From NCBI GenBank assembly GCA_036785375.1, contig JAWMAR010000063.1:7068001-7132000 (forward strand): a stretch of 64,000 nt of DNA, written 5' to 3'. Source of the DNA: Leucoraja ocellata. Its lineage: Eukaryota. Below the pieces are notes generated by a model. That model had not been told where the DNA came from. It worked only from the letters and a program-made list of their open reading frames with translations, and did no database searches. Both the position numbers and the translations under genes were made by a program. Shown piece after piece: positions 5,790-58,730 of the stretch (its first letter is position 1; the number at the start of each line of letters is the position of its first letter).

Positions 5790-7810
5790 GATTTGTCAAA
5801 TGTGCTTTCCATTTCATAAAACCATGTTGATTTTGCCTAATATTATTTTTTCAAGGTGCCCTGTTATCACTTGTTTAATAATAGATTCTAGCTACTCATG
5901 CCGGGAGAACTGGTCTGTACGTTCCAATTTTCTCTCCTCCTCTTTTCTTAAATGGCCAGTTTTTACATTTGCTACTTTGCAATATGTGATCTGTTCCAGA
6001 ATTTATAGAATTTTGGAAAATGATAACCAATGTATTATCTCTGTACTCAGCTCTTTCAAAACCTTGAGATGAAGGTTATCAGGTCCTGGGAATTTTAAAA
6101 AAATAGAAAAGCTGGGTCTTCTTATAATGGTGCCATATTAAAAGTGGTAGGGGTTCAGAGGAACATGGGCGACTGTGCAAACAAGTCTGTGGTAATTAAT
6201 ATGCAGGCACAGCAAGCAATTTGGAAGGTGAATGATATGTTTGCTTTCAGACTCATTGATATATCCAGTCCTATGTTTTATCAAAGCTAATTTCTTATAA
6301 CTTCTCATTCTCTTGAAACCTGTTCATTTCCCCTATTACGACACTGAAGACGGCACAAATCATTTGTCTAATTCTTCCTCCGTTTACAAAACAACTAATC
6401 CTTTCTTCATCGATAAAGGATCAACCGTTACTTTACCAATCGATTTCCTTTTATACTTTGGCGGTCTGCTTTTATATTTCTCTGTACATTATTTTCTATG
6501 TTACTTTACCTTTTCCCATGAAAGTGTACATCTACCTTTGCCAAATTCTTACATTTTCTCAGTCCTCAGATCAATTGCCCTTTTAAGTAAGATTATATAT
6601 TTTCTTTGATCTATCATAAGTAATCTTGTTAACCCCTTTGGACGACATTTCCGTATCTGTGCCTTAATGGGAGAAATAGTTGCTGTAATCTATTGTATTA
6701 ATTCTTTTAGTATTATTCATTGCTTGTTTATTTTTAATTCCTTCAATGTAGCTTTCTATCTAACAGAGCTTACTATTGACATTTTCCTTTCTTAAGAAAT
6801 CAATACCTGGTTTGGATTGAATTCAGTTATAAAGTCATAAGGAACTGCAGAAGTTAGAATCTAGGGCGAAGCACAAAGTGCTGGAGGAACTCAGCAGGCC
6901 AGGCAGTATCTGTAGAAGGCATGAACAGGTTTAGGGTCCCAACCTATAACCTGATGTCTTAGGTCGGGACCATTCTTCAGACCAATGGTCTCATTTCATA
7001 GTACAAGTGCAAAAGTAACCTGTTCATCGACATAATGATGTTGAAAACCATCTCATAAACATGCCATGAATTGTGCCTCACCTTAAGTGTGTTAATTTGG
7101 TTTGCTAGTCTCTCTGTCGATTAAAGCCCCCCATAATTACTATGTCACCCAAATAACACATACCTCCAACTTTCTGCTTTATGCAGTGATCTACATGACC
7201 AATGTTGCTTGGGAGGTAATGGACAAGTTGCACTCCGACTGCCCTTTGTTGCTCGTTAGCTCCATGCAAACTAATACAACATCATGATTTTCCTTTCAAT
7301 TTCTTTTACCCTTTCAGTTTTTTTAGCAGTGCTGCCCCTCAGCTTTTTCTATTTTGCACGCCCTTTCTGGAAATTAAATATCCTGCATTTCCCATTTCTG
7401 TTCATTTTGCAATCTTGACAACATAATGATTATTAGAACATATCCAATTTTTCTATATATATCCATTCATCTATTTTGTTACAAATGCTGTATGAACCTA
7501 TATAAAAAGCCAACATTTTAATATTTTTGCCAGTTTTCCCTTCTCTGACTTCAACTGAAAATATGTCTAAAGTTTATATATTCTGTCCTTCCTGGCATTA
7601 TCATTGTCATGACTTATTTGGCCACATTGAACTAAACACCCTGATCACCTTGTCCTTTCTCTTTAACTTTCTAAATATCACCTTTCAAATCCTATCAATA
7701 GTCCTAGTAATTCAATTCATTTGGACACTGGGCCTACTTTCCAACAGAAGATCTGCATCTTTCCCCAGTAATCCATGCAGTGACAAGTTCTTGTTGGCCA
7801 GAAGCACTTC
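5790..7810 (-). mobile_element. Old, fragmented CR1-type LINE remnants (mostly minus)
   Basis: ccatttcataaaaccatgttga...ataatagattctagc and tcaggtcctgggaa resemble reverse-complemented CR1 RT. Heavily decayed and interrupted by a PLE repeat at ~6840-6985. Confidence 0.5.
6838..6983 (-). mobile_element. PLE-derived terminal repeat, degenerate hammerhead core
   Basis: aaggaactgcag...cacaaagtgctggaggaactcagcaggccaggcag...gggaccattcttcag; member of the ~20-copy family. Confidence 0.75.
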
Positions 7811-8049
7811 ACAGTCGATGAACATAACTCCAGAACATAATTGCAACAAATACGAAAGAGGTAAGATTTTTGGACTCTAGAAAAAAGGATGGGAATATGC
7901 AAAAAGGTAGAAATGAGGACCATGATCCTGTTCAATATGGGAAAGGCACAATGGTCACATGGACGATCCCCGTTTTAATTTTGTACTGGCTGCAAAGTAC
8001 AGCTTGCGGCTGTTCTAAAACAGCTTTGCACGTTGATATGCTTCATGAT

Positions 8050-8262
8050 TTTTTTTTTATTTACACGGAGAGTGGTATATGAAATGAGCTGCCAGAGGAG
8101 GTAGTTGAGGCAGGTACTTTAACAGCATTTAAAAGACACCTGAACAGGAAAGGTTCGGAGCGATATGGGCCAAACGGTGTCAAATGGAATAGCTTAGATG
8201 GGGCATCTTGGTTGACATGGACGAGTTGGTCCAAGGACCGCTTCCTGTGCTGTGTGACTCTA
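8050..8262 (+). mobile_element. CR1 LINE 3' end
   Basis: gagtggtatatgaaatgagctgccagaggaggtagttgaggcaggtac...ggatatgggccaaac-like...tgtgactcta. Confidence 0.85.
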
Positions 8263-8352
8263 ACTATTTTGATGGTCCGCATACTGCTAGTGGAAGTATC
8301 ATACTGGGATTGTGGAAGTATAGAAAAGTTTTGACACAGCAAGTAGTCATTC

Positions 8353-8487
8353 TGTCCTAAGAAGGGCTCCAACTCGAAACGTCACCTGTTCTTTTCTTTG
8401 TTCCAGAGATGATGCCTGACCCGCTGAATTACTCCTGCATTTTGTGTCTCTTTGGTATAAACCAGCACCTGCTGTTCCTTCCTACAA
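8353..8487 (+). mobile_element. PLE-derived terminal repeat flanked by 8-bp duplication AGTCATTC
   Basis: cctaagaagggctccaactcgaaacgtcacc...gttccttcctaca; duplication at 8345-8352 and 8488-8495. Confidence 0.8.
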
Positions 8488-8874
8488 AGTCATTCATCCC
8501 ATTGAGTCTGGGCCAGTTCAAAAATATTTACCCAACCTAATCCCATCTTTCAGCAAGAACTATATTCTAAGTACTGTTTACATGTGATGAAAGGTTCTAC
8601 TTCCAGCTCTAAATCTTTACCATCCTTTCCTTAATCTTTCTTCCAGTTAGTTTAAATCTATTCTCCTCCGGTAATAGGCCATTCCTATCTACACCAAATC
8701 ACTCATAATTATATGTGTCAATTATGTCTCCTTAGCTTATCTCAACTGACAGATAAGCTTTCCCAGTCTTGACAGCATCCTTGCAAATTGCATCCTCTAC
8801 AATGTAAATGTTCCTGTAATGTGGTGACTCAAGCTGTGACCTAATTTGAATTGTGTACAATTCTCCCTATTGGA

Positions 8875-10137: not shown

Positions 10138-10260
10138 ATTTAAGAAAGAACTGCAGATGCTGGAAAAATCAAAGGTAGACAAAAATGCTTGAGAAACTCA
10201 GCAGGTGAGGCAGCATCTATGGAGCAAAGGAATAGGTGACGTTTTCGTGTCGAGATCCTA
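10138..10260 (-). mobile_element. PLE-derived terminal repeat
   Basis: aagaactgcagatgctggaaaaatc...aaactcagcaggtgaggcagcatctatggagc...ggtgacgttttcg. Confidence 0.8.
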
Positions 10261-10736
10261 TTGAATTGTGTACAATATTGTATTATGTTTAGATATCTCT
10301 AACTTCTAGCAGTTGTGTTATCTTCAAGCATAATTATGAAACACAGATTAAAGCATTGGATGCAACAAAAGCAATGGGCCCCGACAAAAATCCCGCTATC
10401 ATACTGAAAACATTTTGCTCCAGATCTTGCCACACCCTAGGCTAAGCTCTTTCAGTTCAGCTACAACACTGACATCCAGCCAACAATGTGGAAAATTGCC
10501 CAGTTATGTCCTGACCACAAGCTGGAGAACAAATCCACCCCATTAATCTCCTCTCGATCATCAGCGTATAAGGGATAATCAATTGTGGTGTTTAGCAACA
10601 ACTTGTTCATAGAAGCTCAGTTTGGGTTTCACCAAAAATCTCTCAGATCCTGACCTCATACAGCCTTGGCTCAAACATGGGTAAGAGAGGTGAACTCCAG
10701 AGGTAACATGAACGTGTACATCAAGTGAAGGGATGT

Positions 10737-11350
10737 CATAGAAACATAGAAACATAGAAATTAGGTGCAGGAGTAGGCCATTCGGCCCTTCGAGCCTGCA
10801 CCGCCATTCAATATGATCATGGCTGATCATCCAACTCAGTATCCCGTACCTGCCTTCTCTCCATACCCCCTGATCCCCTTAGCCACAAGGGCCACATCTA
10901 ACTCCCTCTTAAATATAGCCAATGAACTGGCCTCAACTACCCTCTGTGGCAGAGAGTTCCAGAGATTCACCACTCTCTGTGTGAAAAAAGTTCTTCTCAT
11001 CTCGGTTTTAAAGGATTTCCCCTTTATCCTTAAGCTGTGACCCCTTGTCCTGGACTTCCCTAACATCGGGAACAATCTTCCTGCATCTAGCCTGTCCAAC
11101 CCCTTAAGAATTTTGTAAGTTTCTATAAGATCCCCTCTCAATCTTCTAAATTCTAGAGAGTATAAACCAAGTCTATCCAGTCTTTCTTCGTAAGACAGTC
11201 CTGACATCCCAGGAATCAGTCTGGTGAACCGTCTCTGCACTCCCTCTATGGCAATAATGTCCTTCCTCAGGTTTGGAGACCAAAACTGTACGCAATACTC
11301 CAGGTGTGGTCTCACCAAGACCCTGTACAACTGCAGTAGAACCTCTCTAC
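10737..11350 (-). mobile_element. Young 5'-truncated CR1 (HER1-type) LINE
   Basis: Intact ORF2 C-terminus LYRVLVRPHLEYCVQFWSP...RRLRGDLIETYKILKG...TRGHSL...FTQRVVNLWNSLP (ORF 10836-11357); (TTTCTATG)n tail; nearly identical to 58095-58402. Confidence 0.95.
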
Positions 11351-11389
11351 CTGTCAAGGCAGCTTTTTATCAATTATGGCATCAAGATA

Positions 11390-11482
11390 TTTGTTTAAGA
11401 AGGAACTGCAGATGCTGGAAAATCGAAGGTACACAAAAAAACTGGAAAAACTCAGTGGGTGCAGCAGCATCTATGGAGCGAA
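11390..11482 (-). mobile_element. Truncated PLE-derived repeat flanked by 12-bp duplication GGCATCAAGATA
   Basis: Duplication at 11378-11389 and 11483-11494; body aaggaactgcagatgctggaaaatcgaaggtacac...catctatggagcg. Confidence 0.85.
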
Positions 11483-12215
11483 GGCATCAAGATACTCTGG
11501 CTAAACCCAAGTCAATGGGAGTTTAGTTCCGTTTAGCTTAGTTTATTGTCTCATGTACTGAGGTGCACTGAGGACTGGTCCTTCAGGGTAGTGTGTAAGA
11601 TCCAAGCATCTACAGCTGCTTTGTCAATGACCTACCTTTAATCATATGGTCAGAAATAGGAATATTCCCTGATGATTGCACAATGGTTAACAACATTCAT
11701 GACTCCTCAGATATGAAGCCGTCCATATCCAAATGCAGCAATCCTGGACTAATAAGTGGCCAGTAACATGCATGCCACACTAGAGTCAGGCAATGATATC
11801 CAACAATTCAGCTTTCACCCTTTGACATTCAATGGCATTCTCATCACTGAATCCCCCACTGTTAATATCCTGGGATTACCTGTTTCAGTGCTGTATTGAT
11901 ACATGACTGTGATAAGTCAATTGGATGGCTACCTCCATGAGGTGAATGGGTTTTGGGGCATTCTCACAATCTTTTGCTACTGATGTTCAGACCTTCTTCA
12001 CACGTTTAAATAAACTCGCATGAGGATTAGCAGATAGATCAACCTTGCATGCTACATGTTTGTGGTCACCGGCTACTTCTTGGCTGTGCCATGGTGAGGA
12101 AATTCAGGCAGGAGTGCAGAACGTTGGAACGATAGCGGTCTGTCTCCTCAGAATCATTGGCCCAACTTCTCTACCTTTGGTTCACCCTTTCACTTGACCA
12201 GGGTGCAGTTAAATC

Positions 12216-12267
12216 CGAAGATAGACCGAAAATGCTGGAGTTGCTCAGCGGGTCAGGCAGCATCTCT
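12216..12267 (-). mobile_element. Short PLE-derived repeat fragment flanked by 8-bp duplication GTTAAATC
   Basis: Duplication at 12208-12215 and 12268-12275. Confidence 0.75.
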
Positions 12268-14616
12268 GTTAAATCTGTTGTGTCTGCCAATTCTACTACT
12301 GGTGCTGAAGGCATCTCTGGCACCTCCTATCCTTGAAATTAACACAATCTGCTCCAAGGCTAGGGATTAACAATATTTATATTGCACAAGGTAATTGCTT
12401 TACAATAGAAGAATATAGCAGATTCCATGCCTTTGTGGAGTCTATACAATATGATTTGCAGCTTGATGAATAAAATTGCAGAAAGCAAAAGTGAGTATTG
12501 CATCTGACTGAAGTCTTACTCATTGCCACTGAAGACAAGGAGTGTAGCATTTCCAGCACTGCCCACAGCTGCCAATTCCATTGATGACATTCTATGAACC
12601 CAGTTTAATGGCATTGTTCAAACTATTCAGATGATGATGTGGTTACACATCCTCTTCAAGATTTGAAGCCTGCAAAGTGCATATGGATGGTGCAGGCACA
12701 TATTATATGACTGGTGGGCTGCTAACAACTGATGCACTAAAACTGCAGCAGACAAGCAGTGAAGGCAAAAGCTTCTTTTTCTGCTAATGCAAGTATATCA
12801 AACTGTTGAATAGATGAATGTTTTGAATCCTAACGCAACAAAGCTGAGTATGTGGGAAACTAGACATTAAATCCAACAATAAACTTGAGAGACAAATGGA
12901 ATTTTCAGAACGTGGAGGTCATTCTGAAATAATTTCAAATGCTTCAACATAGTTTAATTTTATCATAACTTCTCTGATGTCGTTGCTCCAGAGAGAACAG
13001 TAACTAAACTGATTAACAATTCATAACTTTACCTTACGTAACCTTGCAGTTCAAACCATGAAGAGAATGTGTAACCCAAATAGAAAGTAGCAATGAATGA
13101 AAGCAATGGAGGATGAGGAACGTTAGTGATGAAAAGTGTATAACCTCTGATGTCCAGTGATGCATGCTCAACTCCAGCGCTTACACCTTGCTCTGTTCTT
13201 TTCTCTGATAACCATGGCTCTCAACCCCAGTAAAAAACAGGCAGTGTACAGAGTTGAATTGTACACTCGGCACTCCACTGCTAAGGCAGGGAGGCACCAG
13301 CCCGCTCCGTAATGGCTGAACAATCGATCACTGTTTCTCTTCTTTATTCCAGTTGCCACCATTAGTTTTTATTGACTCTCACATTCTATCAATAGCAGCC
13401 CTCTAAAGGAGCCCTTTGTATTTATGAACCTTTCTGTCCTGTGTGGCTATCGCACTCTATCATCCGAATGGCCTTTCTGGCCCGAGATGGATGGCCACTC
13501 TGTCACTGCTTTCAATTCAGGCTTTAAAACCAATTACTTTCTTATTAAAACTGGTGTGGGTGCTACAGGCAGGGCTGAGTCAGGAGCACAGACCCCTGAT
13601 GGCAAGCATCTGTCACCCAGGGAACGAGATAAGTCGTTCGATGTGTCAGGGTTAATAGAAATTTGGAGCCTGAGGCAATGTCCAGACAAAGGGACTGTTG
13701 TGACTGGACTATCAGTGTGAGCGATTTATACATTCCATACTACTACTCCACTGCACAAAACAGTAGAAATCTCCCTCAATACTGCAATGCCAACATTGTC
13801 TGAAAAAGGGTGTGTAGATTGGACATTAGCTATTCAGTTTAATAAACATATCATTGACTTCACTCTCATATTAGCATTTCTTGTTGAGGAATGTATAATT
13901 CACCGTTTTGGCGGAATAGATTTACTATGGAGATGGTTCTTTCTAATTACGTTCAGATCATCGAACTTTCTGAGAGTCTTTGGAAAATCGCAGTGCTCCC
14001 CACAGTCCTCATCATTCAAATGATGAAACCAAATAAATACAATAATGAACATATTTAAAGAAGCAGTGACATTATTGAAGATTGGAAGATGGGGAGGGAA
14101 TTTCAACAAAGTTATCCAAGGCCTCACTAAAACGCCATGGCTGGAGAAATAAAGGTGACCCACGGATTTCACATGAAAAATTATGTTGTACATTTTTAAG
14201 GGTATGTTCTCCATTTAAAAGTTTGGTAGGACTGTCAATGATGGAGATGACCCTCCAGCGATCTTCAATACCACTTGATCATTGCCAGAGAAAGCTTTGT
14301 TGCAAAAGAGAATCGGCCTGTATGCAGTAATGTTTATACTCACATAATTATACAACAGCCGAAAGGTGATGACCAATTACTTGCATTGCGTTAGCTGGCA
14401 GTTGTAAGGTTACTTAAGCAAAATTAAACGGAGTCACTCTGTAAACTGGGGTTCAGATTGGGAAGTCTTTTTCATTTTTGGAACTTAACTTCAAACCTCA
14501 TCCAGGCAGGTGATGTGACGGCTATTTTCTGTCTTGAAGAAGAAATTGTGTTGGGGCAATGTCATGTCGTTTTTCCAAGCTGAACTTCCCTTCATCTCAA
14601 ATGAAATTAATTTGGC

Positions 14617-14710
14617 ATAGACACACAAAGCTGGAGTAACTCAGCAGGTCAGACAGTATCTCTGGAAAGAAAGGATAGGTGGCGTTTCGGGTCGAGACCC
14701 TTCTTCAGAA
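14617..14710 (-). mobile_element. PLE-derived terminal repeat with hammerhead core
   Basis: atagacacacaaagctggagtaactcagcaggtcagacag...ggcgtttcgggtcgagacccttcttcag. Confidence 0.85.
14681..14708 (-). ncRNA. Minimal hammerhead ribozyme motif (cleavage triplet changed GUC>GCC)
   Basis: RNA: CUGAAGA A GGGU CUCG ACCC GAAA CGCC. Confidence 0.6.
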
Positions 14711-15707
14711 ATATCCTTCATCTCGCAGAAATAAATCTGAATTCACCCAGATTCTAATTCACTCAAAATCCAGCAGCTGTGGCCCAGGTTCCAAAATTGT
14801 CTCACAAAGATGTCATGTTTGGGAAACGGAAAGATTATTTTTGTAAAATTTGTAATATTCATCTTTTATTTATATTATATCTATTTTTCTCCTCCATATT
14901 TTCTGTAAGACTTTTTCCCATTATGTCATTATCACTGTCGCTAGCCTGAGAAAAATTTATTGCGTAATAATCCAAGTATAATAGTTCCTCATCCCTTCCT
15001 ACATCAGTTCAACTAATAGCTCTTGTGGCTGCCCTGGGCTCTTTCAGCAGATAGTTAAAGTTTGCCAATGTGAAAAGGAGCAACTCCACCACAAACAGTC
15101 TTGGTACTGGAACCTAAAACTTGCAGCACGTGTTCCACTTTTCTGGGCTCCTGACAGACACCTTGTTGCAAAATACTAGAGACAGATTTTTCATTTATTT
15201 ATGAGAAGGTAAGCCAGCCACTGGTGGAGAAACCAAAAAAAAATTGATTAAAGTGTATTTTACTGGTGCCTCAGTGAAAATAGCCAAACTGTTGTTCTGA
15301 TAAATTCCAGAAGAACAGATCAAAGTTCTTTACATCAAAGCCCTTCTTTGTGAAGTATTCCCACACAGAGAAACAGTAAACAAAAGCAAACTTCAAAGAT
15401 TTCTTTGCTGGAGCTGCTGCTACTCTTTATTGTAGGATGACTGATTTAGCAATTGTTCTGTTTGTGATGCTACTGGCTGTTTCAGGTTTATCCGTCTGAA
15501 GTGCTTGCATCTTCTTTTGAATTGCCTTTTGCTCTTGCTCATCAAGGTAAAAAGTGTATGACTGGTGGGGAACTGCACCCTCTCCAATACAGGCATCCAG
15601 TGCCAGTGGCAGATTGTACTGTATGTAGAGTCAGGGTAAAGCATTTCATCTCTGATCAATAGCGTGAAAGCCATTGTGTTTGACCATTGTGGTACATATT
15701 TCCACTA

Positions 15708-17964: not shown

Positions 17965-18244
17965 GTGTGAAAACAGGCCTTCAGCCGACCATCGATCGCC
18001 TGTTTATACCAATTCTATGTTGTCACACTTTTACATCCACTCGCTACTCGGGACAATTTACAGAGGCCAATTAACCTACTAACCCACACGTCTTTGGGTT
18101 GTGGGAGGAAACCGGAGCACCCGGGGGAAACCCACGTGGTCACAGAGAGAGTGTTCAAACTCCACACAGCACGCGAGGTCAGGATTGATCCTGGGTCTCT
18201 GGGTCTATAAGGTAGCAGTTCTACCTGTTGTGCCACTGTGCCAC
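17965..18244 (-). mobile_element. HE1-type SINE
   Basis: aaacaggccttcagcc...tgtgggaggaaaccggagcacccgggggaaacccacgtggtcacag...gccactgtgcc. Confidence 0.9.
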
Positions 18245-18284
18245 TCAACAATATATCCCATATACACAAAACAAAATCATTGAA

Positions 18285-18560
18285 AAGCAAAATACTGCAG
18301 ATACTGCAAAACTGAAAGAAACCATAAAGTGCTTGAAATATTCTGCAATTCACACAGCACCTGTTGAGAGGGAAATAGAATTGTTGTGGGCCTAAAACCA
18401 TAATTTTCTGTCACTCTCCACAGACGCTGCCTGACCTGAGCATTTCTAGCCCAGGAACATTTGTTAACCAGAAACATTAACTACTTCTCTTTTCTCAAAT
18501 ACTGCCTGATCTGCTGAGTGTTCCTACCATTTACCATTTTTATTTCAGATTCCCAGGTTC
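18285..18560. mobile_element. Older PLE-derived terminal repeats in inverted/tandem arrangement
   Basis: aaaagcaaaatactgcagatactg... versus ...cagacgctgcctgacctgagcatttctagc and ctgcctgatctgctgagtgttcc. Confidence 0.6.
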
Positions 18561-25010: not shown

Positions 25011-25024
25011 ACTGTGAGGTGGAG

Positions 25025-45167: not shown

Positions 45168-45231
45168 CAACATTTCAAAAATGGTTAAAATAACCCTCTG
45201 TTCAAATGGTATTTTTTTAATAATATACCTC

Positions 45232-45298
45232 AGATTCAGATTCAATTTTAATTGTCATTGTCAGTGTACAGTACAGAGACAACGAAATGCATTTAGAA
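45232..45298 (-). mobile_element. Rex1-type LINE tail fragment
   Basis: tcagattcagattcaattttaattgtcattgtcagtgtacagtacagagacaacgaaatgcatttag. Confidence 0.6.
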
Positions 45299-45644
45299 AC
45301 GCAAGAAAATCCAAGTGATTAATAGTTCCATTTTAACTACCCGCCCAACATATAAAATAATTGGAGAACGATCTTTTGACACAAGATAGTTCCATTGTGA
45401 GACAGAAGTGTGTAGCAATGGTCCCATTGATTGTAATTCACTTATTTTCCTTACTCACTCCTGGGTAGTGGATATCACCAGGAAAGGTTAGCATTTATCG
45501 ATCTATAGAAGGTGGCGGTGAACTGCTGCCTTGAACAAGTGTGATCCATGGATGAAGGTACTCCCCAGGGTGCTGTTAGATTCGGAGTTCCAGGACTTTT
45601 ATCCCCAGCCACGAAGAATGAAGAACACTGTATTTCAAAAGGTA

Positions 45645-45787
45645 CACAAAAATGCTGGAGAAACTCAGCGGGTGCAGCAGCATCTATGGAGCGAAGGAAA
45701 TAGGCAACGTTTCGTCCCAAAACGTTGCCTATTTCCTTCGCTCCATAGATGCTGCTGCACCCGCAGAGTTTCTCCAGCATTTTTGTG
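45645..45787. mobile_element. Near-perfect PLE-derived fold-back (68-bp arms, 7-nt loop)
   Basis: Arms 45645-45712 and 45720-45787 differ at one position; inserted beside an old LINE 3' fragment (45480-45630). Confidence 0.9.
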
Positions 45788-46302
45788 AATCTCCTCAATG
45801 TATTTAAAAACTCAGGATGGTATGTGACAATTCTTTCATATTTATTCATCAGATTTTGGTGTAGCTACAGGCCAAACATTTATTTCCCACGCAAACTTAC
45901 CCTTGAACTAAAAAGTTTGCAAGGCCATTCCAGACAAAAGTCAACCACACTGAGGTAACATAAAAGCCAGAGTTGACATTCCATTTCCTTCCCTAAAGGA
46001 CATTAGGGGAGTAATGGTCCGATTAAACGTTTCTTCTTCTTCGTGGGCTGGATGTACAACAGCAATTTTCCACTTTGACAGATAGATTCCTCAGTTGGAG
46101 TTGCACTGGAATAGCTTAGCTTGACATGTAGCTTGGCAGAGATCCCCAGCACCACAATGGAGAGGGTGTCAGGGCTCCGTAGCCTTTGTTGGTTACATTG
46201 CTGGATTGGTCATCTAGAGGCACGGGCTAATGCTCCAGAGGCAGGGATTCAAATCTCACCAGAGTAACTCTAGATTTTATGTATGATTAAATAAATAAAC
46301 AT

Positions 46303-46588
46303 GTTTAGTTTAGTTTAGTTTAGTTTAGAGATACAGTGTGCAAACAGGCCCTTCGGCCCACTAAGTCCGTGCTGACCAGCGATCCCCACACATTAACACC
46401 ATCCTACACACACTAGGGACAATTTACACATACACCAAGCCATACCTGTACGTCTTTGGAGGAAACCGAAGATCTCAGAGAAAACCTACGCAGGTCACGG
46501 CAAACAGCACCCAGTAGTCGGGATCGAACCCAGGTCTCTGGCGCTGCAAGCGCTGTAAGGCAGCAACTCTACTGCTGCACTACCATGT
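46303..46588 (-). mobile_element. HE1-type SINE with (TAAAC)n tail
   Basis: (gttta)n gagatacag...aaacaggcccttcggccc...gggatcgaacccaggtctctggcgctg...ggcagcaactctac. Confidence 0.9.
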
Positions 46589-46694
46589 GCATGAATCCCT
46601 TGACCAAGAATCCCTTGCAAATAAGAAAGTTTGCCTTCCCACTCCATCAGGACTGTATATGACTCCATCCCCATGGCCATGTCATTGACTCTTA

Positions 46695-47826
46695 AAGGGC
46701 CTGTCCCACTTAGGCGACTTCTTTGGCGAGTGCAGGAGACTCTGCGCTAGCCACAAGACCGCCACATGGTCGCAGGTGGTCTCCTTCATGGTCGGGAGGG
46801 TTTCCCACATTCTGAGAACTAGTCGCGGCATCAATATGTTCGCCGAAAATATTTCAACATGTTGAAAATTTTTCTGCGACCAAAAACTGGTTGCCATGGA
46901 GAAAATCGATGCTTTTGTAGTCGTAGGTCTAATCGTAGTGGGGTCATAGGTAGTCATAAGTAGTCGTAGGTGGTCTTAGTTAATCGCCTTTGCTGACCAA
47001 TCATTTTCATTGGCTCATTGAGAAAAAAAAGGTATGTAAACAGCAGCACGTGATTCGCTGTCATTCCGGTGCGCGGTCAGCGCGCAATTTTTCTTTCAGT
47101 GGATCAGACGGTGTGAGACGTGGCTCTGAGGAGAAGGCTTCAGCGCAGGGGCACGGCACAACCCTCAACACCACCCACCATGCTGTTATCAACATTTGTT
47201 TGTTTATTAGACTTTTGTATTTTTCATTAACAATAAAGGAAATCCCTGACTTTTTAACCTCAAATTGATGTATGAATATCATTATTTTTCATAGCAGTTC
47301 CTCATGTCATCACTTATATCTCATATTCCATTTCTCATATATTTAGGTCATTGAAACCCACGCAAATGCAAGGAAGGAATGCATTATATTTAAAGTTTGA
47401 CTTTTCACATTTATTTTGATGAAGAAAACAGACATAGGCACTTCAAATGCACTGCATTTAAAAGGATTTTATTTTTATACATCTCGAACAAGCAATACAC
47501 TGAATTTAAAAGAACATGTTTGAAAAATCTAACGTCATTTTTTTAGTTGATCTTACGACTATAGAGTCGTAGCCAGTCGTAGCTTGTCGTAGCTTGCTTT
47601 CTGTGATCGTGGGCATAGTTGTCTGTAAGTTGAAGGTGGCGTTTTCAGTCCCCACTATTGGGTCGCCAATTGTCACGAGTGCATCGGCGGTTAAGTCGTA
47701 TATAGTCGTAGCTTGTCCTACATAGTCGTAGGATGCGTTTGATACATTCACTTTTTCGGCGATTCACCAAGACTATGACAGTCGCCTGCACTCGCAAAAG
47801 AAGTCGCCTAAGTGGGACAGGCTCTT
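46695..47826. mobile_element. PIF/Harbinger-like non-autonomous element (~1.13 kb)
   Basis: TIRs AAGGGCCTGTCCCACTTAGGCGACTT / AAGTCGCCTAAGTGGGACAGGCTCTT, flanked by TA; subterminal gtcgtag repeats at both ends. Confidence 0.9.
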
Positions 47827-47879
47827 TACTGTCCATCTGATATGCACCAATCAAACACATTGAGCAGGCCTTTTGTGTT

Positions 47880-48545
47880 TAAAAATCTATATCTCCTTCT
47901 TAAACATGCTCAGTAACATGTCCCACACAGTTTTCTATGGTTGAAAATTCCACAAATTTGTTATACTCTTTGTGAAGACATTTCTCCTCGTCTCAGTCCT
48001 AAATGTCTTACTCCTAAATCCTAAATTATGACCCTTTATTCAAGATGCTCATCTGCACCTCACCAATGCCAAGGAAACATCTTCATTGCACCCAGCATTG
48101 TATGGCTCAATAAAATCCCCATGTCTTTATAAACTCTTCTGAATGCAGGTCTGATTGAACCCATCTCTCCTAATATGATAGTCCCACCACCCACAGGAAT
48201 CAGTCTGGTGAATCGTCATGCAGTCCCTCTATGGTCATTTTTTTTTTTTGAGTTAAGGTTTCAAGTAGCTTTACAAATATAGTAAGATGCATTGATACTG
48301 TACCCAGAATATCTTGCAATGAAGGCCAACATACCATCTGCCTTCTTAATTGCTTGCTGCTTCTGTATGTTTGCTTTCAGTGATTGTTGTTCAAGGATAC
48401 CCAGATCTCTTTGTACATCAGCATTTCCCACTCTGTCATCATTTGGATAATAGTCTTCATTTCTGTTTTCCTACTATAGTGAATAACCACGTTTATCAAT
48501 ATTATAGGATCTGACACTTGTTTAACCAATCAACCAATTGTAAAT
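47880..48545 (-). mobile_element. Old CR1 ORF2 3' region
   Basis: gtgaagacatttctcctcgtctcagtcctaaat...caggaatcagtctggtgaatc...gcaatgaaggccaacataccatctgccttcttaattgcttg. Confidence 0.8.
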
Positions 48546-48904
48546 GTATCGGTCCACTTGTCTATTAGGAGTGACCATCATAAAGTCCTTAAGATGTCAA
48601 ACTCTATCTTCAAATGGAGGTCACTTTCGACTATGTTGTAATGTTACTACCACTGTGCTAAATGAGACATCCTCTGAACAGATTACTAGATTACTAGAAA
48701 TACTCTAGGCACAATCTGTACCCTCAAGATGAAGCATATTTCTCAGTCTAGTGTTGCTATCCAGCTAGTAGCCGAACTGGTTTAACGAGGAGTACAGAAG
48801 GATAAAACAAGACCTAAAAACAAAATGACAACCTGGTGAAGCTACAACACACATTAGAGAAGAAAAAGCAGAATTCTGCAGATTGAATGAATCAAAATTA
48901 TCTG

Positions 48905-49338
48905 AATAAAAAACCTTTGAAGATAATTCATGCTCACCTCCTTCTGAGCTCCTCCCCAGCGTTGAAACCAGTTTCAGATCATTTTATAGGAAGGAACTGT
49001 AGATGCTGGTTTAAACCAAAGATAGACACAAAAAGCTGGAGTAAGTCAGCGGGACAGGCAGCATCTCTGGGGAGAAGGAATGGGTGGCGTTTTGGGTCTG
49101 GGACCCTTCTTCGGACTCTGAAGAAGGGTCTTGACCTGAAACGTCACCCATTCTACAGTTCCTTCCTACAAAATTAGCTGAAACTGGTTTCAACGATGGT
49201 GAGGGGCTCAGAAGGAGGTGAGCATGAATTATCTTCTCGGTACTTCCTAATGAAGATAGCTGAAAATGTTCAGGGATGTGCTGAGCTGTCAACCTCGGTT
49301 TTTGGCTGAATGTTGTGGGACTTCAAAGGTTTTTTATT
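48905..49338. repeat. Extended inverted duplication centred on back-to-back PLE hammerhead cores
   Basis: gaagataattcatgctcacctccttctgagc...gttgaaaccagtttcag...taggaaggaactgtaga (48919-49003) is mirrored at 49152-49236; aataaaaaacctttgaag (48905) is mirrored at 49321-49338. Confidence 0.85.
49118..49145 (+). ncRNA. Minimal hammerhead ribozyme motif
   Basis: CUGAAGA A GGGU CUUG ACCU GAAA CGUC; core and GUC triplet intact, G-U pair closing stem II. Confidence 0.65.
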
Positions 49339-49979
49339 GCAATCTATTGTTTATCAGATTGTGTAATTCTCTCTATAAGTAACACAGTGTCTGATGTGAA
49401 CATATCTAAGTAAAACATTCTTTAACTGGGACAACGCTGGGAAATATTTAGCAGGTCAGACAGCATCATTGGAGAGAGAGCAGAGTTGGTGTATTGTGAT
49501 GATGACTTTCATTGGAAACATATATAAATGTCATATATATGACCTGGCAATATATGAATGACCTGGCATCCAGAATAATTATGATGATGAACATATTGCT
49601 GTTTGTGGAATCTTACATTAGATTGATACCTGGCAATTTTAGCCTATGCAATAATTTGCTGCCCTACCATATACTCATGTTTAATAGTTTGGTCTTTTCT
49701 GGAAATATGATGAAGGGTTATATTGTATTCACTGTAATGAGTTTGCTACTTAAGTTAAAGTCTCCCTTTGCAAGGGTGTCAAAGTTCCTCCTCATTAAAA
49801 GGGAACAATATGGTATATAGGTAGAAAAAAGGAGATTATTAGGTGGGGATGGAGTGTGGGTGGGTTGTTAACATCAGCAGTGCGCTGCAGTCCTTTGGAC
49901 AGCCATGTTAGAACAAGTGCTGAGGAAGGCGTTTAGGTATTGCTGGGAGACGTTTGGGGTAGGATGATACAATTGTTTT

Positions 49980-50445
49980 GATTGAAAGATACAGCATGGA
50001 AACAGGCCCTTCAGCCCATTGAATGAAGGCCAACCATCAATCACTCGTTCACTCTCATTCTATGTAATTCGACTTTCGCATTCACACCCCACACAACTAG
50101 GGGCAATTTACAGAGGGCAATTAACACACTTCAAGAGTTCAGAGTCTTTCCTTTGAACATCACAAGAGGACACTATCAAGGTGTCCTATTTTAGGCAAAC
50201 ATAAACATTACAATTCGTCAGTATAAAAATTCTCATCTATCACTGATGCTCACAATTTCACATTTCAATTACAGAGGGCAATTAACCGCACTTCTTTGGT
50301 GGAAACCAGAGCACCAGGAGGAAACTCACGTGTTCACAGGGAGAAAGTGGAAACTGCACAAAGACAGCACCCGAGTTCAGGGTCAAATCCGCGTCTTTGG
50401 TTGTTTAAGGTGGCAGGTCTTCTAGCTGCACCACTGTACTGCCCT
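49980..50445 (-). mobile_element. HE1-type SINE with an internal ~130-bp insertion
   Basis: gatacagcatggaaacaggcccttcagccc...ggaaaccagagcaccaggaggaaactcacg...ccactgtactgccc; insertion 50133-50265. Confidence 0.8.
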
Positions 50446-50594
50446 TTATGTTATTACAAAACTAAATTCTTGATAAAAAGAGAAAAATCTCCCTCTGAAA
50501 TAGTTACGTTATCATGGTTAACTGATTACATGCATTAACTCAAGAAGAATGAGGGAAAACATTGCAGCACAACTGAAGGAAAAATTTTGTGACC

Positions 50595-50783
50595 AAGATA
50601 GACCCAAAATACTGGAATAACTTAGCAGGTCAGACAGCATCTCTGGAGAAAAGGAATATGTGGCCCTGATCTGAAGAAGGGTTCCAACCCGAAACGTCAC
50701 CTATTCCTTTTCTCCAGATATGCTGCCTAAACAGCATTTTGTGTCTCTCTTCAGCATAGACCAGCATCTGTATGTTCCTTCCT
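50595..50783. mobile_element. Fold-back pair of PLE-derived repeats
   Basis: cagcatctctggagaaaaggaata / tattccttttctccagatatgctg. Confidence 0.85.
50671..50698 (+). ncRNA. Minimal hammerhead ribozyme motif
   Basis: CUGAAGA A GGGU UCCA ACCC GAAA CGUC; all core nucleotides intact. Confidence 0.65.
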
Positions 50784-51796
50784 ATTAATTTTGTGAGCAC
50801 CTTGTTGTCCACTGTGTATGAACTCCAATTGCAAGAATGCCAGAAGAAAATTTATCCTGCAATGAAAAACCATTCAAATGCCCATGGTTATCCTGTGGTA
50901 GAACCAGGCGTGACACTCGTAGACCACGTGGCAAGTAGAAAGGACACCCTATTGAAGGGAATTAAATGTGTGTGGCTGGAGCCTGAAATGGTTAGGCTGA
51001 TAGTTTTCTCCAGCATTTTGTGCCTTTCTTTGATGTAAACCAGCACCTGCAGTTCCTTCCTATACATTACCTCAGTTGTTACCCAGGCTGCATATAGAAC
51101 TGTAGCAATGTTGGGCTTAGACTAGGCCAGAGTAACAAAAGAAATATTATGACGCCCACTGGAATGAGAAATGCCCACAGCTTCCTTACCTCACACAGGT
51201 TTCAGAGACAGAAAGAAGGTCCAAAACAGGCAGCCTAACAATGTTAATGACAAACAAAATGGGGGTAATTTTTAGGCTGCCATCTAATGCCTGTTGTCTG
51301 ATGATGGGTATAAACATTCACTGCTCACTCTTGTGCTTTTCTGACATGATGCTATAATCACTGCCTGCTATTCATCGTAAACATGAATCCCATCTTGATT
51401 GTGGTCTTTCAGATTCAGTGGCAAGTAACATAGGTTTTCGGGTGGTGACCCCTCAGAGTGGCAGAATGAGCCTCCGCATGCTGGTCTCCAGTTTCCTTAA
51501 CGTTCATGTTCTGGGTTGCAGTAGAATTGTCTGAAACACAGCAGCGAGTCTGAAACAGTTCACCGTTGTTCCAGCTCCTCAATGTTGAGCAAGAGTGCCC
51601 CCTTCTGTCCCCAGTAATCAAATCTCTTTACAACACAGAGCGGGAGACATGTAAAGTCAACTTTACACAATCACAAGTGCCAAGCTTTAAACTCCATGGA
51701 TCAAAGGCTACAGAATTATACACAACTCTCACAGATTCAAGAAGCCCAGTCACTTCAGAGCAGCACATTTTGCTTTAAGTGTGATAAATACGTTAG

Positions 51797-52049
51797 GATA
51801 GACACAAAATGCTGGAGTAACTCAACGGGGCAGGCAGCATCTCCGGAGAGAAGGAATGGGTGATGTTTCAGGTGGAGCCACTTCTTCAGACTGATGTCAG
51901 GAGCTCGTCGGAGAGAGGAGGAGAACTTCTTCAAAGTAGACATACCTTGAGGAGATTTTACAGTGGGGCAGACAAAATGTGTAGGAAAGAACTGCAAATG
52001 CTGGTTTAAATTCGATTTAAACCAGCATCTGCTGGTCTTTCCTACACAT
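51797..52049 (-). mobile_element. PLE pseudo-LTR array with probable ORF start and terminal fold-back
   Basis: Repeat unit, then MSTLKKFSSSLRR on minus, then a second unit start; palindrome tgtgtaggaaagaactgcaaatgctggtttaaat/atttaaaccagcatctgctggtctttcctacaca (51978-52048). Confidence 0.75.
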
Positions 52050-54111
52050 AGAGTGTCTGCCTTCAGGTGGTACTTGAATTATCTTTTTGTTGATCTTTGC
52101 TGTGACCCACCTCTCATCCATCCAGTTCCTCTCAGTCCTGTTCCAAGCCACAGTTGTGAGCTTGTTGCACCTGCCCTTTGTGGAGTGAAAGGTGCAAAAT
52201 GAGCTGAGGATGCTGGTGAGCTGGAATTAGCCTAGACCAGCCATATTTATGTGGTAGCCCTGCAAGAGAAATAGGTGCCACACTGGCTAGAAACAAATAT
52301 TCACTTTGAAAAATATTTGAAACCATTTTACTGTTCACCTTTGAAAAGTGTATCTAAACCATCGGCCTTGAGGGCAGCACATTTAAGCAATTAAGATGCT
52401 AATTACAAAGAGAAGGAAGTGTAAACTTAAAGAGTTATATAAAATGTTTATAGTAATTGGGTTTAGACTCACAGCCATGATTTTTGTGGACATTCCCTGG
52501 AGTATTCATTTAAAGACTGCCACTCCTTTGAAAGTTGCAGAGGTGAGGGACATTCATTGATTCAAAGGAAAAAAGGCCCCTCTCCTTTAGTATGCAGGAG
52601 TTACACAGGATATTAAAGACACCCAGTACTTTATCGTGAGGGACCTTGTAGTGGGGGAGGGGAGAATATTTCCTAAGTCTTTAATTGACTTTAAATGGCT
52701 GTAATATATTTGCCAGCTATTAAAAGCATCAGGAATAGCTTTTTTTTTTAATCCCCTTAGCCACTCGTGTACATTACAAGCATCTTCTAAAACTTACTGA
52801 AATGATCTAGGGCCAGGGTATCATCCGGATAAGCTTTGCTGAAATGATGCCATTTAGGCCGCAGAAACAATTTGTGGAATAACATTCCCCAGATCAAACT
52901 AGACCATTCACTCTGCAGAACAATTCAGATCTACATCTAGTAAACATATGCAATAATTTTGCAAGTATTAATAAATGAAAAAAATAAAATGAGATCAATC
53001 AGCATGTATTATATAATGGGGTTTGTGTACTGAATGCCCCAGTGCAGTTCAGCTGGATGCTTAAAACAAATTCACATTTCATTGAAAAATAGCTCTAAAC
53101 AGATTGACTTCTGTTTTATTATCTTCCTAATCTAATACAGTCATCCAGCATATACCACGGAATTACACAACTAATTAATTAATCCTTTGCTGTCTAATCA
53201 GAATATTTTTCATACTAATGATGGTATACTTTTTGTCGATTAAAGTGATGTTGCCATCCAACAGTATTGATGTATTGTTTACAGTTTACCCAGAGTCTAG
53301 CTTACCTGGATGTAAATGAAGAATTTAAACCATTTCATGTTTGAACATTCTTGCTACAGGTAGCTCAGTTCAAACACATGGTTATTAAACATTGTAATTG
53401 CATGGTCACATACATAATTGAAGCCTCAATCAATAACGAAGTGTTCAAAAATAAGGGTTGTTAGAAATGAATCTATCTGTTAAATGCACCTTGCCTTTTA
53501 CATTTACAAATGTATCCAGCAGTTTATTTTGCACATATTTAATTGAACCAGTCACTGAATCCGGCTCACATTTAACTATAAGTGACCAAAGATTAACTTT
53601 GTTGTCAGCGGAAGTAAAGAAAAATTACAACAAAGCTTCATAATACATCATTCTAATTTGTGTTGTATCCATTTGCTCTCCTGTACTGCGTTGCATCTTT
53701 CGGCAGCCCCAGGGCAGGAAGGAACCTATTGTAAACAAGCCTTCAAAGTTAACTGGAAAATCCGCTACAAATGCCTTTAATAAATAAACCAAAGAGGACC
53801 AGCTGATCATTAACTAAATAGAAAGGTTTCAGTAAGATTGCTTGGTGTATTGCTGCTGACCTTGTGGTACTAGTGGTTGAACACAATACGCACCATAGCC
53901 ACTAAAGACTGACAGAACAAATCCATCCTCCTCCTTCCACACACCAATTGAATACAGCTCCATCTTTTTAAAATCTAATCCTGTTTTTTATCCATTATTT
54001 TTATTCTTGTATAATTTTTAAGGATATACTTTGTAATCTGCCCACTTTTGTTCTATCTCATTTGTTGCAAATTGTTCCTAATTTACACAATAGTCGTTAC
54101 ATGCTGCTTAA

Positions 54112-54640
54112 GAATAGCCTCAGAATAAGGACTTACCTTTAAATAAGAGATGAGGAGGTATTTCTTTAGTTGGAGGGTGGTGAATCTGTGGAATTCATTG
54201 CACCAAAAGTCTGTGGAGGCTTATGCCCCTGTCCCAATTAGGAAACCTGAACGGAAACCTCTGGAGACTTTGCGCCCCACCCAAGGTTTCCGTGCGGTTC
54301 CCGGAGGTTCCCGGAGGTTTTTGTCAGTCTCCCTACCTGCTTCCACTACCTGCAACCTCCGGCAACCACCTGCCACCTCCGGGAACTGCACGGAAACTTT
54401 GAGTGGGGCGCAAAGTCTCCAGAGGTATCCGTTCAGGTTTCCTAAGTGGGACAGGGGCATAAGTCAATGGATATATTTAAAGCAGAGATTGACAGGTTCT
54501 TGATTAGTACAGGTGCTGGGGTTATGTGGAGAAGGCAGGAGAATGGGGTTGAGAGGGAAAGCTAGATTAGCTATGATTGAATGGCAGAATAGACTTGATG
54601 GGTCGAATTCTACTACTATGACTTATGAACGTATGAACGT
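54112..54640 (+). mobile_element. CR1 3' end interrupted by a MITE
   Basis: MRRYFFSWRVVNLWNSL then, after the MITE, agtcaatggatatatttaaagcagagattgacagg...ggagaaggcaggagaatggggttgagaggg. Confidence 0.9.
54224..54459. mobile_element. PIF/Harbinger-like MITE (236 bp, ~90-bp TIRs)
   Basis: TGCCCCTGTCCCAATTAGGAAACCTGAACGG... / ...CCGTTCAGGTTTCCTAAGTGGGACAGGGGCA, flanked by TA; second copy at 61515-61761. Confidence 0.92.
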
Positions 54641-54769
54641 AACTTATGGGAGGAGCTACTATAAACTTTGATTTGAGGGATCTTAGACACTTATCACTAG
54701 ACTGTGTATGTGATCTTCATGAATGAGATTGCCAGTAACCAAGACAGAGAAGTTGTATTGTAAATACTA

Positions 54770-55030
54770 GAGATTGACACAAAAAGCTAGAGTAACACAG
54801 CAGGACAGGCAGCATCTCTGGAGAGAAGATTGGGTGAGATTTCAGGTTGAGATATTTCTACGGACAAAAGTTCTCTCAAAACTCATCTCCTGCTTATTGT
54901 GAGATTCTTTTCTGATACAAGGCCATTGACTTGACATATTAATTCTGTTTCTCTCTCCACAAATGCTGTCAGACCGGTTGAATGTTTCCAACAGCATTCC
55001 CTTTGCACTATTGTGAACATCGTCTTCTTG
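54770..55030. mobile_element. PLE-derived repeats (younger minus copy plus older plus copy)
   Basis: gacacaaaaagctagagtaacacagcaggacaggcagcatctctgg; tctgatacaaggccattgacttgacatattaattctgtttctctctccacaaatgctg. Confidence 0.65.
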
Positions 55031-55953: not shown

Positions 55954-58094
55954 ACAGTGTGAACACAAATGTTGACAGCACCTTTCTACTGATGACAAAT
56001 GGGGCAAACATATGCTAGGGAGTGGAATACAAATAGGTCATTTGTAAAAGAGAGAGGAGCAAAGAATGATAGAAAAGTCATAAGCAAAAATTGCTCAATA
56101 ATATGTTATTTATGGGGTGGGTTTCCTGAGGGAGAAAATATCTAACCATACAAGTTGAGGAAGGAAGCCTGAGGAAGAGCAAAGAGAAACCGAGTGTAAT
56201 ACACAGAGAAAGGAACGTGACAGAAATTGGAATAAAGATTACAGGATCTGAAAAACAGAACAGAAATAAATGTTTCAACTTTAGAAATGTGTGCAGATGG
56301 TAAGATACATGTAAAGGTCATTTGCAAATGCTGTGGAGTTTTAATGCCCATTTGGATCAAAAATTTGGAACATTTTGGAAAATGTCAGAATGGAGCCTCA
56401 TATTTGCCCTTCAGTAACATGGAGAGCACCAGGACAATAATGATATCAGCCTCTTGCGCAAAGTAAGATTCATAGATAATACTCTGTAAATCAACAACTG
56501 TACAAGTATTTACAACCGCAGCAAACATATTCATCTTTAGGCATCACTAATGCTGCTAGATTCCTAACAGGTCACACTTCATACTCAGGTTTATAGAAAT
56601 AATAGTCACTGGACCCACATGTGACTTCATCATTATCATGTGTCTTATATACTAAACATGTCAGGAACTTTATCTGCCCCAATAGCTGTTTTTAGACTAT
56701 TTCTGTACTTGGTATAGTTCAAAGGAAGTGTACCAAAGTCAATAATGAGCGTAGTTAATAGTCTGACCTTGCACTCAGCAAAAATATCAGAGTTCATAGA
56801 TTGTGCATCATGGGACAAGGGAAATCATTATTCTTTCTTTGCCTTCTAAATTACAGTCAAGTAAATAACTTTACGTAAAGGTTAATTTTATTTGTATAAA
56901 TTACTTATACAATTGCGTTGAAGCTATTTAACCACATTAAGATAAAGAAGATGACCATTAAGGGATTAATGCTGTCCAGTGAAAATTGTGGGTGCAACTA
57001 TGAAAACATATCTGCCATATACAAATCACAGTGGGAAGGCAGCGGGAGGAATAGGAGCTTCTCCGAGCTTGTGCAGCTCATCAAAGGATAAAGAGGAAAT
57101 TCATTAACTTCACCTGTATTATATATATATATATATACTTTAAGAGGAGAAAGGCAGAAAGACACAGCAGAATTATCGAGTTATATTGCTCAATACATGA
57201 ATATCACACCATCTCTGTGATTTTGATGAACTAATTTAACTAAACAAGTTCTGGAAGTGCTCGAAAAGGTAAGAGTCATTAAAAGTCAGGCTTCAGTATA
57301 CCCCTTACATTCAATTATTAACGATCTTAATCCAGTCACATCAGGGATCTGCATAGATCAAGTGCATTGATGTTTTGCTGAATTCTAACACTGTGGTTAT
57401 ACGTCATTGTGCTGTATTCAAGTGAAACAAGGGTATAATTTTTATTTGCCTTAATTTTAAACAGATTTTGGGTTGAATTGTATTAGTAGAACAATGACTG
57501 CCGTCGAATCCATTATATGTGATGTTTTGCTTCTCCCTGTCCTAGATGCAGTGGCATTTCAATAGGCAAGAAGTGTAAGAAGGATTTCTTACACCTATCC
57601 CCTTTGTTTGCCCTTTTCTGCAAAGTTGCATCAATAAAATTAAATGAAATTAAGTTGATAAAGTAAATAAAGGATCATCCAACCCGACAGTTGTGCCCCA
57701 AGGGGGTTCCACATCCTAATCACGTACTGTCTGAAATTTCATTCTCAATTTCAATTGCAAATGCACATGTGTGGCATGCTACAATTTCTGACTGTATGGT
57801 CGATGCAATAGATCTGCTGTGCACATACAATCTGCTGTGCTTCCCACTGCATGACACTTCATTGACTGGAGCACTTTGGAAAGTTCTTCGATCATGAAAA
57901 GTGCTAAAGAAACACAACCTATTGTTTTAGTCTATTGCGTGAAGGTATGGAACACACTGGCTATGCAGTCATGCAGTCAGTTGAACTTAAGTACAACCTG
58001 GAGTTTTGCATATAGAAGTCTGAGACACTGATTCAGAACAGTTGCCATCCTAAATTATGCCAACTCAGGCAATGAATTAGAAGGTAATGAGGAA

Positions 58095-58402
58095 GGTCAC
58101 AGCTTAAGGATAAGGGGGAAATCCTTTAAAACCGAGATGAGGAGAACTTTTTTCACACAGAGAGTGGTGAATCTCTGGAACTCTCTGCCACTCTCTGCCA
58201 CAGAGGGTAGTTGAGGCCAGTTCATTGGCTATATTTAAGAGGGAGTTAGATGTGGCCCTTGTGGCCAAGTGGATCAGAGGGTATGGAGAGAAGGCAGGTA
58301 CGGGATACTGAGTTGGATGATCAGCCATGATCATATTGAATGGCGGTGCAGGCTCGAAGGGCCGAATGGCCTACTCCCGCACCTAATTTCTATGTTTCTA
58401 TG
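58095..58402 (+). mobile_element. Young CR1 (HER1-type) 3' end
   Basis: Nearly identical to the reverse complement of 10745-11042, with a 10-bp tandem duplication ctctctgcca and a (TTTCTATG)2 tail. Confidence 0.95.
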
Positions 58403-58607
58403 TCACATGTTGTTTATAATTAGTTTAAATTAATTCTGGTGCTTCTGAGTTATGCAAGTGTATCAGAAATAATATAAATAATTTAATTTTAATATATTTT
58501 CTTGATTTTCAATGCTAAAGGCCAAGTCTCGATCTCACCACTGGACTCTGGGATATTGAGGTTGAGTGCAATTTGCCTGTCAAAACATGTGAAGACAACG
58601 GGAGAGA

Positions 58608-58730
58608 CAGAGAACTGCAGATGCAGGTTTATAGCAAAGATAGAACAAAGTGCTGGAGTAACTCAGCAGGTCAAGCAACACCTCCAGTGAAAAAGGATGT
58701 ATGACGTTATGAATTGGGACTCTTCTTCAG
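58608..58730 (-). mobile_element. PLE-derived terminal repeat, degenerate hammerhead core
   Basis: gaactgcagatgcaggttt...gctggagtaactcagcagg...gacgttatgaattgggactcttcttcag. Confidence 0.75.

Follow-up and report, generated by a model that had tools for sequence, protein, structure and literature searches.

Dispersed repeats with a minimal hammerhead core in 64 kb of Leucoraja ocellata DNA: probable terminal repeats of a Neptune-like Penelope family

A 64,000-nucleotide stretch of the genome of Leucoraja ocellata (GenBank assembly GCA_036785375.1, contig JAWMAR010000063.1, forward-strand positions 7,068,001 to 7,132,000; the whole stretch is hereafter the window, numbered from its first letter) contains a short repeat whose sense strand holds a minimal hammerhead ribozyme core, and the question it raises is whether these repeats are a family of ribozymes that spreads as RNA or the residue of another element. 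A model that saw only the letters (the sequence-only reading) had counted about 20 repeats carrying the core, derived them from Penelope-like elements (PLEs), and described them as a non-autonomous, retrozyme-like family. The probability that the repeats are dead-on-arrival 3' pseudo-long terminal repeats (pLTRs) of a Neptune-like Penelope retrotransposon family is put here at about 0.8, because remnants of GIY-YIG and reverse transcriptase (RT) coding sequence are linked to the repeat on the same strand, the copies have two preferred 3' ends, target-site duplications (TSDs) and head-to-head pairs occur, and the copies decay neutrally. 

A hidden Markov model (HMM) of the repeat, built from 11 window copies, matched 35 segments at 24 loci at a segment threshold of E<0.02, while the best match in the reversed window, used as a null, had E=1.9. 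Together the segments occupy 2999 bp, or 4.7% of the window, with a locus every 2.7 kb, and all 20 positions of the sequence-only reading coincide with them. Column counts use 34 of the 35 rows, since the one for 18414-18438 fell onto its neighbour on realignment and was left out; the start of the copy at 20736-20854 was set to model column 17 before counting. The repeat tree took in 28 of the 34 rows and was mostly star-like, with weak support. A literature search by title and start of abstract turned up no account of the family in cartilaginous fish; Repbase, Dfam or the supplementary tables of Li et al. may hold it.

The derivation from PLEs is supported by RT or GIY-YIG coding remnants linked to the repeat at 2 of the 24 loci, as well as by ends of PLE type. 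The linked loci and their parts are:

24516-25060, minus strand: solo tail at 25026-25060, followed by same-strand PLE RT remnants at 24808-24864 and 24516-24707
41677-42190, minus strand: 5'-truncated PLE with a GIY-YIG C-terminal remnant at 42059-42190
about 41742-42050, minus strand: C-rich 3' untranslated region (UTR) of the truncated PLE
41677-41741, minus strand: pLTR body of the truncated PLE, hammerhead core missing

The GIY-YIG remnant comprises 47 codons and lies upstream of its pLTR copy, beyond a tract of 54% C. Its relatives, found with phmmer and then by alignment, led to two annotated proteins of Hypanus sabinus (P0012 and P0013); P0013 is a piece of PLE polyprotein with RT, a Cys-rich linker of the form CxxxCxxC and a GIY-YIG domain, the last matching Pfam at E 8e-4, which is below the curated cut-off. 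Agreement between the remnant and the C-terminus of the P0013 GIY-YIG domain is 50% over 36 amino acids (E 4e-10, pairwise), and tblastn gave the remnant locus an E of 3.7e-6 against 0.039 for the best null match. The RT remnants at 24516-24864(-), on the same strand behind the solo tail, reach E 1.7e-10 with full-length relatives. The linker is present in 11 of the 12 relatives checked, P0013 included, and its region is not preserved in the window; the motif of the relatives points to the Neptune clade and is shared with Nematis, and the term Neptune-like is used here on the strength of this motif, not of a phylogeny with named references. Neptune-clade PLEs (Craig et al. 2021, PMC8557442) have a C-terminal GIY-YIG, a Cys-rich linker also found in the matching full-length proteins, 5' truncation, inverted pLTRs, an optional tail of 30-40 bp and a hammerhead near the 3' end, all of which resemble the present case, but the window is without an intact element. 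An earlier survey reported PLEs from every one of its 23 vertebrates (PMC4350176). Two gene models of Hypanus sabinus (P0012, P0013) carry the names mucin-2 and divergent protein kinase domain 1C but consist of PLE RT/GIY-YIG sequence, either through misannotation or as exonised repeats.

The ends and junctions of the copies resemble those of PLEs. Among the 3' ends of the 35 segments, 13 fall at model columns 85-115 and 16 at columns 126-137, and there are three solo tails; the two groups of ends correspond to the optional tail of about 30-40 bp described for PLEs (PMC8557442, PMC11167929, PMC3846280). Direct TSDs of 7-12 bp flank the inserts at 6 of the 16 loci tested (p 2e-4), and TSDs of at least 8 bp at 5 of the 16 (p 6e-6), so the short inserts have real junctions. 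Thirteen pairs of neighbouring segments lie within 300 nt of each other, nine of them head-to-head, one tail-to-tail and three on the same strand; inverted pLTRs are typical of PLEs (PMC3846280, PMC8557442). Inverted duplications of the flank are found at two loci (67 bp at 48919-49236 and 40 bp at 20651-20894), which fits a new strand that folded back and copied itself into the flank. The sequence upstream of 14709 was considered as a short inverted arm and proved, in the TSD search, to be a direct target duplication; the reading of 20651-20690 and 20855-20894 as a long TSD was rejected since the duplication is inverted. The other loci and their features are:

6834-6982, minus strand: pLTR fragment of a divergent subgroup (with the copy at 40181), core to tail, core broken
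8353-8487, plus strand: pLTR fragment, core to tail, starting 3 nt before C3, core broken
8345-8352 and 8488-8495: 8-bp TSD of the 8353 copy
10140-10277, minus strand: pLTR fragment, 5' box lost, 9-bp TSD
11390-11482, minus strand: pLTR fragment without hammerhead, 12-bp TSD
12203-12268, minus strand: pLTR body only
14599-14714, minus strand: pLTR fragment from core to first 3' end site, without tail, 10-bp TSD
18285-18519: old diverged head-to-head segments (18285-18370 minus, 18414-18438 plus, 18466-18519 plus)
20651-20894, minus strand: pLTR fragment 20736-20854, cut inside helix II, plus a short extra tail piece
20651-20690 and 20855-20894: 40-bp inverted flank duplication around the 20736-20854 copy
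27774-27918, both strands: head-to-head pair, each arm starting at about the cleavage site
32656-32825, both strands: head-to-head pair without full core
40178-40321, minus strand: pLTR fragment of the divergent subgroup, invariant boxes kept, H17 = G, 12-bp TSD
40970-41162, both strands: head-to-head pair, the minus arm bearing the one complete core whose helix I reaches 2 bp
41062-41089, minus strand: complete minimal hammerhead core, predicted cut after 41062
43890-43991, minus strand: old copy, degraded core, C-rich upstream sequence resembling the UTR
44302-44354, minus strand: old pLTR body
45636-45798, both strands: head-to-head pair folded at helix II, 95% complementary, 7-bp TSD
48905-49338, both strands: head-to-head pair (48983-49117 minus, 49116-49169 plus)
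48919-48985 and 49170-49236: inverted flank duplication (93%) joined to both tails of the preceding pair
49118-49145, plus strand: complete core, G.U at 10.1-11.1, helix I of 1 bp
49434-49501, minus strand: old pLTR body
50572-50788, both strands: head-to-head pair, complete core on the plus arm
50671-50698, plus strand: complete core, helix I of 1 bp
51005-51066, plus strand: 3' part and tail only
51771-52061: two head-to-head tails (51978-52047), an 86-nt spacer and a core-bearing copy at 51771-51892 on the minus strand (helix II broken)
54761-54998, both strands: core-spanning copy 54761-54865 on the minus strand (core broken) plus an old plus-strand segment
58606-58732, minus strand: pLTR fragment, core to tail, core broken, adjoining a CR1-like fragment

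The majority sequence of the family has the core CUGAAGA-A-GGGU-N4-ACCC-GAAA-CG-UC, with an additional A, a helix II of 4 bp that has G10.1-C11.1 as its closing pair, GAAA, a palindromic CG and UC. Minimal hammerhead ribozymes (min-HHRs) of metazoan PLE terminal repeats were described by Cervera & de la Pena 2014 with the consensus CUGANGAH-G..C-GAAA-palindrome-UH (PMC4209133), and the family consensus shares with them CUGANGA, the extra base, the G-C start of helix II, GAAA, the palindromic two-base helix III and UH, as well as the short helix I and the occurrence mostly as single dispersed motifs with some opposite-strand pairs; the identification as a minimal type I hammerhead with a palindromic helix III is supported by this match. 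The count of about 20 repeats with the core holds for the repeat and for its consensus but not for the individual copies: at the 20 listed positions, 10 reach C3 (one through its inverted partner), one lacks the 5' box and nine are truncated earlier. All 11 invariant nucleotides are retained in 5 of the 13 core-spanning segments, and the minimal descriptor, which also demands helix II, the 15.2-16.2 pair and UH, is matched by 3 of the 13, namely 41062-41089(-), 49118-49145(+) and 50671-50698(+). These are three of the four cores that had been named as best preserved; the fourth, 14681-14708(-), has U16.1 changed to C and fails the descriptor.

That even these three would cleave is doubtful. 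The caution already voiced about a helix I of about 2 bp was well placed, since it has 2 bp (U-A and G-C) in one of the three cores, 1 bp in the other two and at least 3 bp in none. Published helices I are typically of 3-5 bp with at least 2 G-C pairs in the rows (PMC4209133), and all six published 2-bp rows have two G-C pairs in place of the U-A and G-C found here; as far as the window shows, helix I would be weaker here than in any of the 56 rows published. In computed ensembles of the three best copies the probability of helix I is at most 0.001 in each, the core is buried in the preferred fold in two of the three, and at head-to-head loci, 41062-41089 among them, a long hairpin buries the cleavage triplet. 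A dimer of the two plus-strand cores 1.55 kb apart was rejected as its helices I would have only 1 bp. Intact-looking cores in the window number three, and they are probably inactive. In the old copy at 43960-43995(-) a single extra C precedes the core; assuming CpG decay after C17, this one degraded copy fits an older subfamily with a 3-bp helix I.

The thought that the likeness to a hammerhead arose by chance in an ordinary repeat deserves next to no credence. It could appeal to the absence of any Rfam hammerhead match (none in the whole window at the gathering score and none in 40000-52500 at E up to 10, where only miRNA-type hairpin matches to inverted pairs and weak chance matches were returned) and to the lack of covariation and of extra conservation among the copies. 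The descriptor is expected 0.075 times per window (200 Markov resamples) and is found three times, however, even if the three are copies of one ancestor; the sequence sits in a PLE terminal repeat; and the extra base after A9, the G10.1-C11.1 pair and the palindromic 15.2-16.2 match the published PLE motif (PMC4209133).

Retrozymes are head-to-tail units, each with a hammerhead, that give circular RNA, and their hammerhead is a canonical type I with a 6-bp helix I and loop-loop contacts (Cervera & de la Pena 2020, PMC7229834; bioRxiv 10.64898/2026.07.22.740005). The animal non-LTR retrozymes of these sources are short, non-coding, PLE-related and equipped with a type I hammerhead, as the present repeat is; they derive from PLE pLTRs and, like PLEs, are reported in one chondrichthyan (Li et al., bioRxiv 10.64898/2026.07.22.740005). 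A family spreading through self-cleaved, circularised monomers could also draw on 7 of the 35 segments, whose starts lie at model columns 29-37, close to the cleavage site, and on a partial tandem at 51771-52022 with a period of about 220 bp, the only one in the window. Those starts also fit stalling of RT at helix II, and several keep GUC. The copies are single or head-to-head and mostly without core, and have no cleavage-to-cleavage unit; the 64 kb hold no head-to-tail array and no same-strand neighbours that both have a core; 13 of the 35 segments extend from the 5' edge across the uncleaved site, and no copy ends in the 5' half of the hammerhead. Copies typically start just before the core, not at the cleavage site, and the hammerhead is minimal and not canonical, with a helix I of at most 2 bp and P<=0.001. 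The retrozyme-like label was accordingly given up as very improbable. Nor is a non-autonomous family needed, as far as 64 kb can tell: autonomous PLEs usually leave short, truncated insertions of a single pLTR (PMC4209133, bioRxiv 10.64898/2026.07.22.740005).

If the repeats are Penelope pLTRs, a PLE protein would nick the DNA and prime reverse transcription at either of two sites, which lie about 100 and 135 nt downstream of the hammerhead. The template RNA would be uncleaved, because 13 of the 35 segments continue past the cleavage site as far as the 5' edge. Synthesis would mostly end in the hammerhead or just 5' of it, leaving an insert of 100-135 bp with a TSD; alternatively the new strand would fold back and give an inverted pair, at times copying the flank too. 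This mechanism is proposed because PAc, the Poseidon PLE of Anolis (Frangieh et al. 2024, PMC11167929), behaves likewise: two internal start sites of reverse transcription, roughly 110-145 nt downstream of its hammerhead, define its tail, uncleaved RNA is the dominant template (as proposed for the repeat here), the ribozyme needs protein, and cleavage is dispensable for insertion. PAc differs in belonging to another clade and in that its open reading frame (ORF) starts in stem II, where the present repeat has no ATG. The hammerhead would be the inherited minimal motif of PLEs and, if it works, may act in intact tandem master transcripts, as a dimer and/or with PLE protein, and not in the genomic copies; dimeric or protein-aided roles of PLE hammerheads have been put forward (PMC4209133; review PMC6765202).

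The genomic copies decay neutrally. The median copy differs from the consensus by 20%, no two copies from different loci are more than 85% identical, and identity is 62% in CpG columns versus 79% in the others. Among the window copies the core is no better kept than the body: the 11 core positions are kept in 121 of 141 cases and the body in 616 of 735 (p 0.62). Covariation in helix II does not exceed that of 500 shuffles among 13 copies, as expected from neutral decay.

Several results weigh against the attribution to a Neptune-like Penelope family. An endonuclease remnant in the expected order is found at only 1 of the 24 loci, where the hammerhead core is missing, and the RT-linked locus (24516-25060) is rearranged. 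Direct Pfam and NCBIfam scans of the endonuclease remnant gave nothing, as did a word-based search with its 47 amino acids, and the ESM Atlas gave it no support. The window has no full-length element with an ORF between direct pLTRs, so a master pLTR is not seen. TSDs of at least 7 bp are lacking at 10 of the 16 loci tested. The two copies of the divergent subgroup differ from the consensus in 0 of 9 core columns versus 13 of 70 body columns, a contrast too small to test but hinting that the core may be under selection in master elements. Finally, simple random truncation fails to explain where the copies begin. In ten of the 12 copies that reach C3, UTR-like or common sequence is absent more than about 8 nt upstream, and the probability of this is 7e-13 or 2e-6 at stop rates, measured elsewhere in the window, of 0.005 or 0.025 per nt. 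The test is rough, as the copies are not all independent (head-to-head junctions account for 4 of the 10, including two from a single locus) and a single UTR copy served as reference.

This 5' boundary, confirmed by TSDs at 8353, 14714 and 40321 and fuzzy between -1 and about -8, means either that the RNA starts there or that RT stalls at the C-rich tract. The bases upstream of the core fit an initiator-like TCAGT. A start of the RNA at the boundary would imply that short copies might seed new ones, and the repeat could then be a self-contained solo pLTR, comparable to a short interspersed element (SINE), with an internal promoter about 3 nt before the core and PLE protein supplied in trans; reverse transcription would start internally and run off the RNA 5' end, as in a strong-stop product, or fold back, the short copies seeding themselves in trans. 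Beside the boundary, this unlikely possibility has in its favour that UTR-like upstream sequence occurs at only 3 of the 24 loci, that 51771-52022 resembles an internally deleted element, that internal starts of reverse transcription and an internal promoter have been shown for other PLEs (PMC11167929, PMC2377424), and that pLTRs suffice in cis for mobilisation in trans (PMC3846280). The same boundary would arise, however, without any non-autonomous family if RT reached the 5' end of the transcript of a full-length master and ran off it, or stalled at the C-rich tract, and its fuzziness counts against a fixed start. In the D. virilis element some 120 nt separate the start site from the hammerhead downstream of it (PMC2377424), which does not favour a promoter at the core. 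The window also has no young subfamily among the short copies and no tRNA-like head with ARAGORN or with Rfam at the gathering score, although degenerate heads could be missed. If this possibility were true, a hammerhead-headed, PLE-driven SINE would have filled several percent of an elasmobranch genome, and its fixed ends, fold-back pairs and inverted flanks would amount to a very large natural archive of the second half of PLE transposition, which is still unsolved. Reading the AG|T boundary as a splice acceptor was rejected, the 12 copies having no shared upstream exon; in D. virilis an intron ends at helix I (PMC4209133). The repeat at 45708-45787 is directly followed by 11 nt (45788-45798) that also occur in the spacer at 51893-51977. 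This spacer could be the 5' end of the PLE itself and may hold a start codon; as an ORF start it had no support in a profile search (iE 1.3).

Other sequences of the window are less closely tied to the Penelope repeats. At 26416-27466(+) an ORF rich in CpG and apparently free of introns runs in two frames; it has weak similarity to Ig V-set domains and a hydrophobic stretch at its C-terminus, and resembles FAM187-type genes. Its change of frame near 27155-27321 may be an assembly error or mark a pseudogene. An open frame at 37249-37460(-) behind a pyrimidine-rich tract could be a host exon and has no match in Pfam, PDB or Atlas. A frameshifted non-LTR RT remnant at 21541-22301(-) (RVT_1 E 1e-12 and 2e-16) is not matched by the PLE profile. 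The 3' pieces of a young, CR1-like long interspersed element at 10744-11366(-) and 58095-58403(+) are 97-98% alike with an open frame of 176 amino acids, and 11 related pieces occur in the window. Two copies of a palindromic element of about 240 bp, resembling a miniature inverted-repeat transposable element, lie at 54220-54463 and 61518-61762 (93% alike), and a SINE-like family of about 200 bp, resembling the shark HE1/V-SINE type, is found at 18030-18260 and 7 further places. The strands of these families offer a comparison for the repeat: its 15 single-orientation loci fall 13 on the minus and 2 on the plus strand (p 0.007, post hoc), versus 6/5 and 4/4 for the CR1-like pieces and 2/6 for the SINE-like family. 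Comparison of 255 frames of at least 62 amino acids with Pfam found no host gene whose direction would explain the bias, which therefore could not be tied to transcription.

Min-HHRs number thousands per genome in coelacanth and Xenopus, mostly single and ascribed to truncated PLEs, and the 56 rows of Fig. S3 in that source include no cartilaginous fish (PMC4209133). Under the Penelope attribution, the known association of PLE pLTRs with minimal hammerheads is extended to a skate or ray, and a picture of 20 ribozymes is corrected to one of three intact-looking, probably inactive cores. With a copy every 2.7 kb, the repeats are also of value as a data set, their junctions bearing on where RT starts and stops, on whether cleaved templates are used and on the origin of inverted pLTRs.

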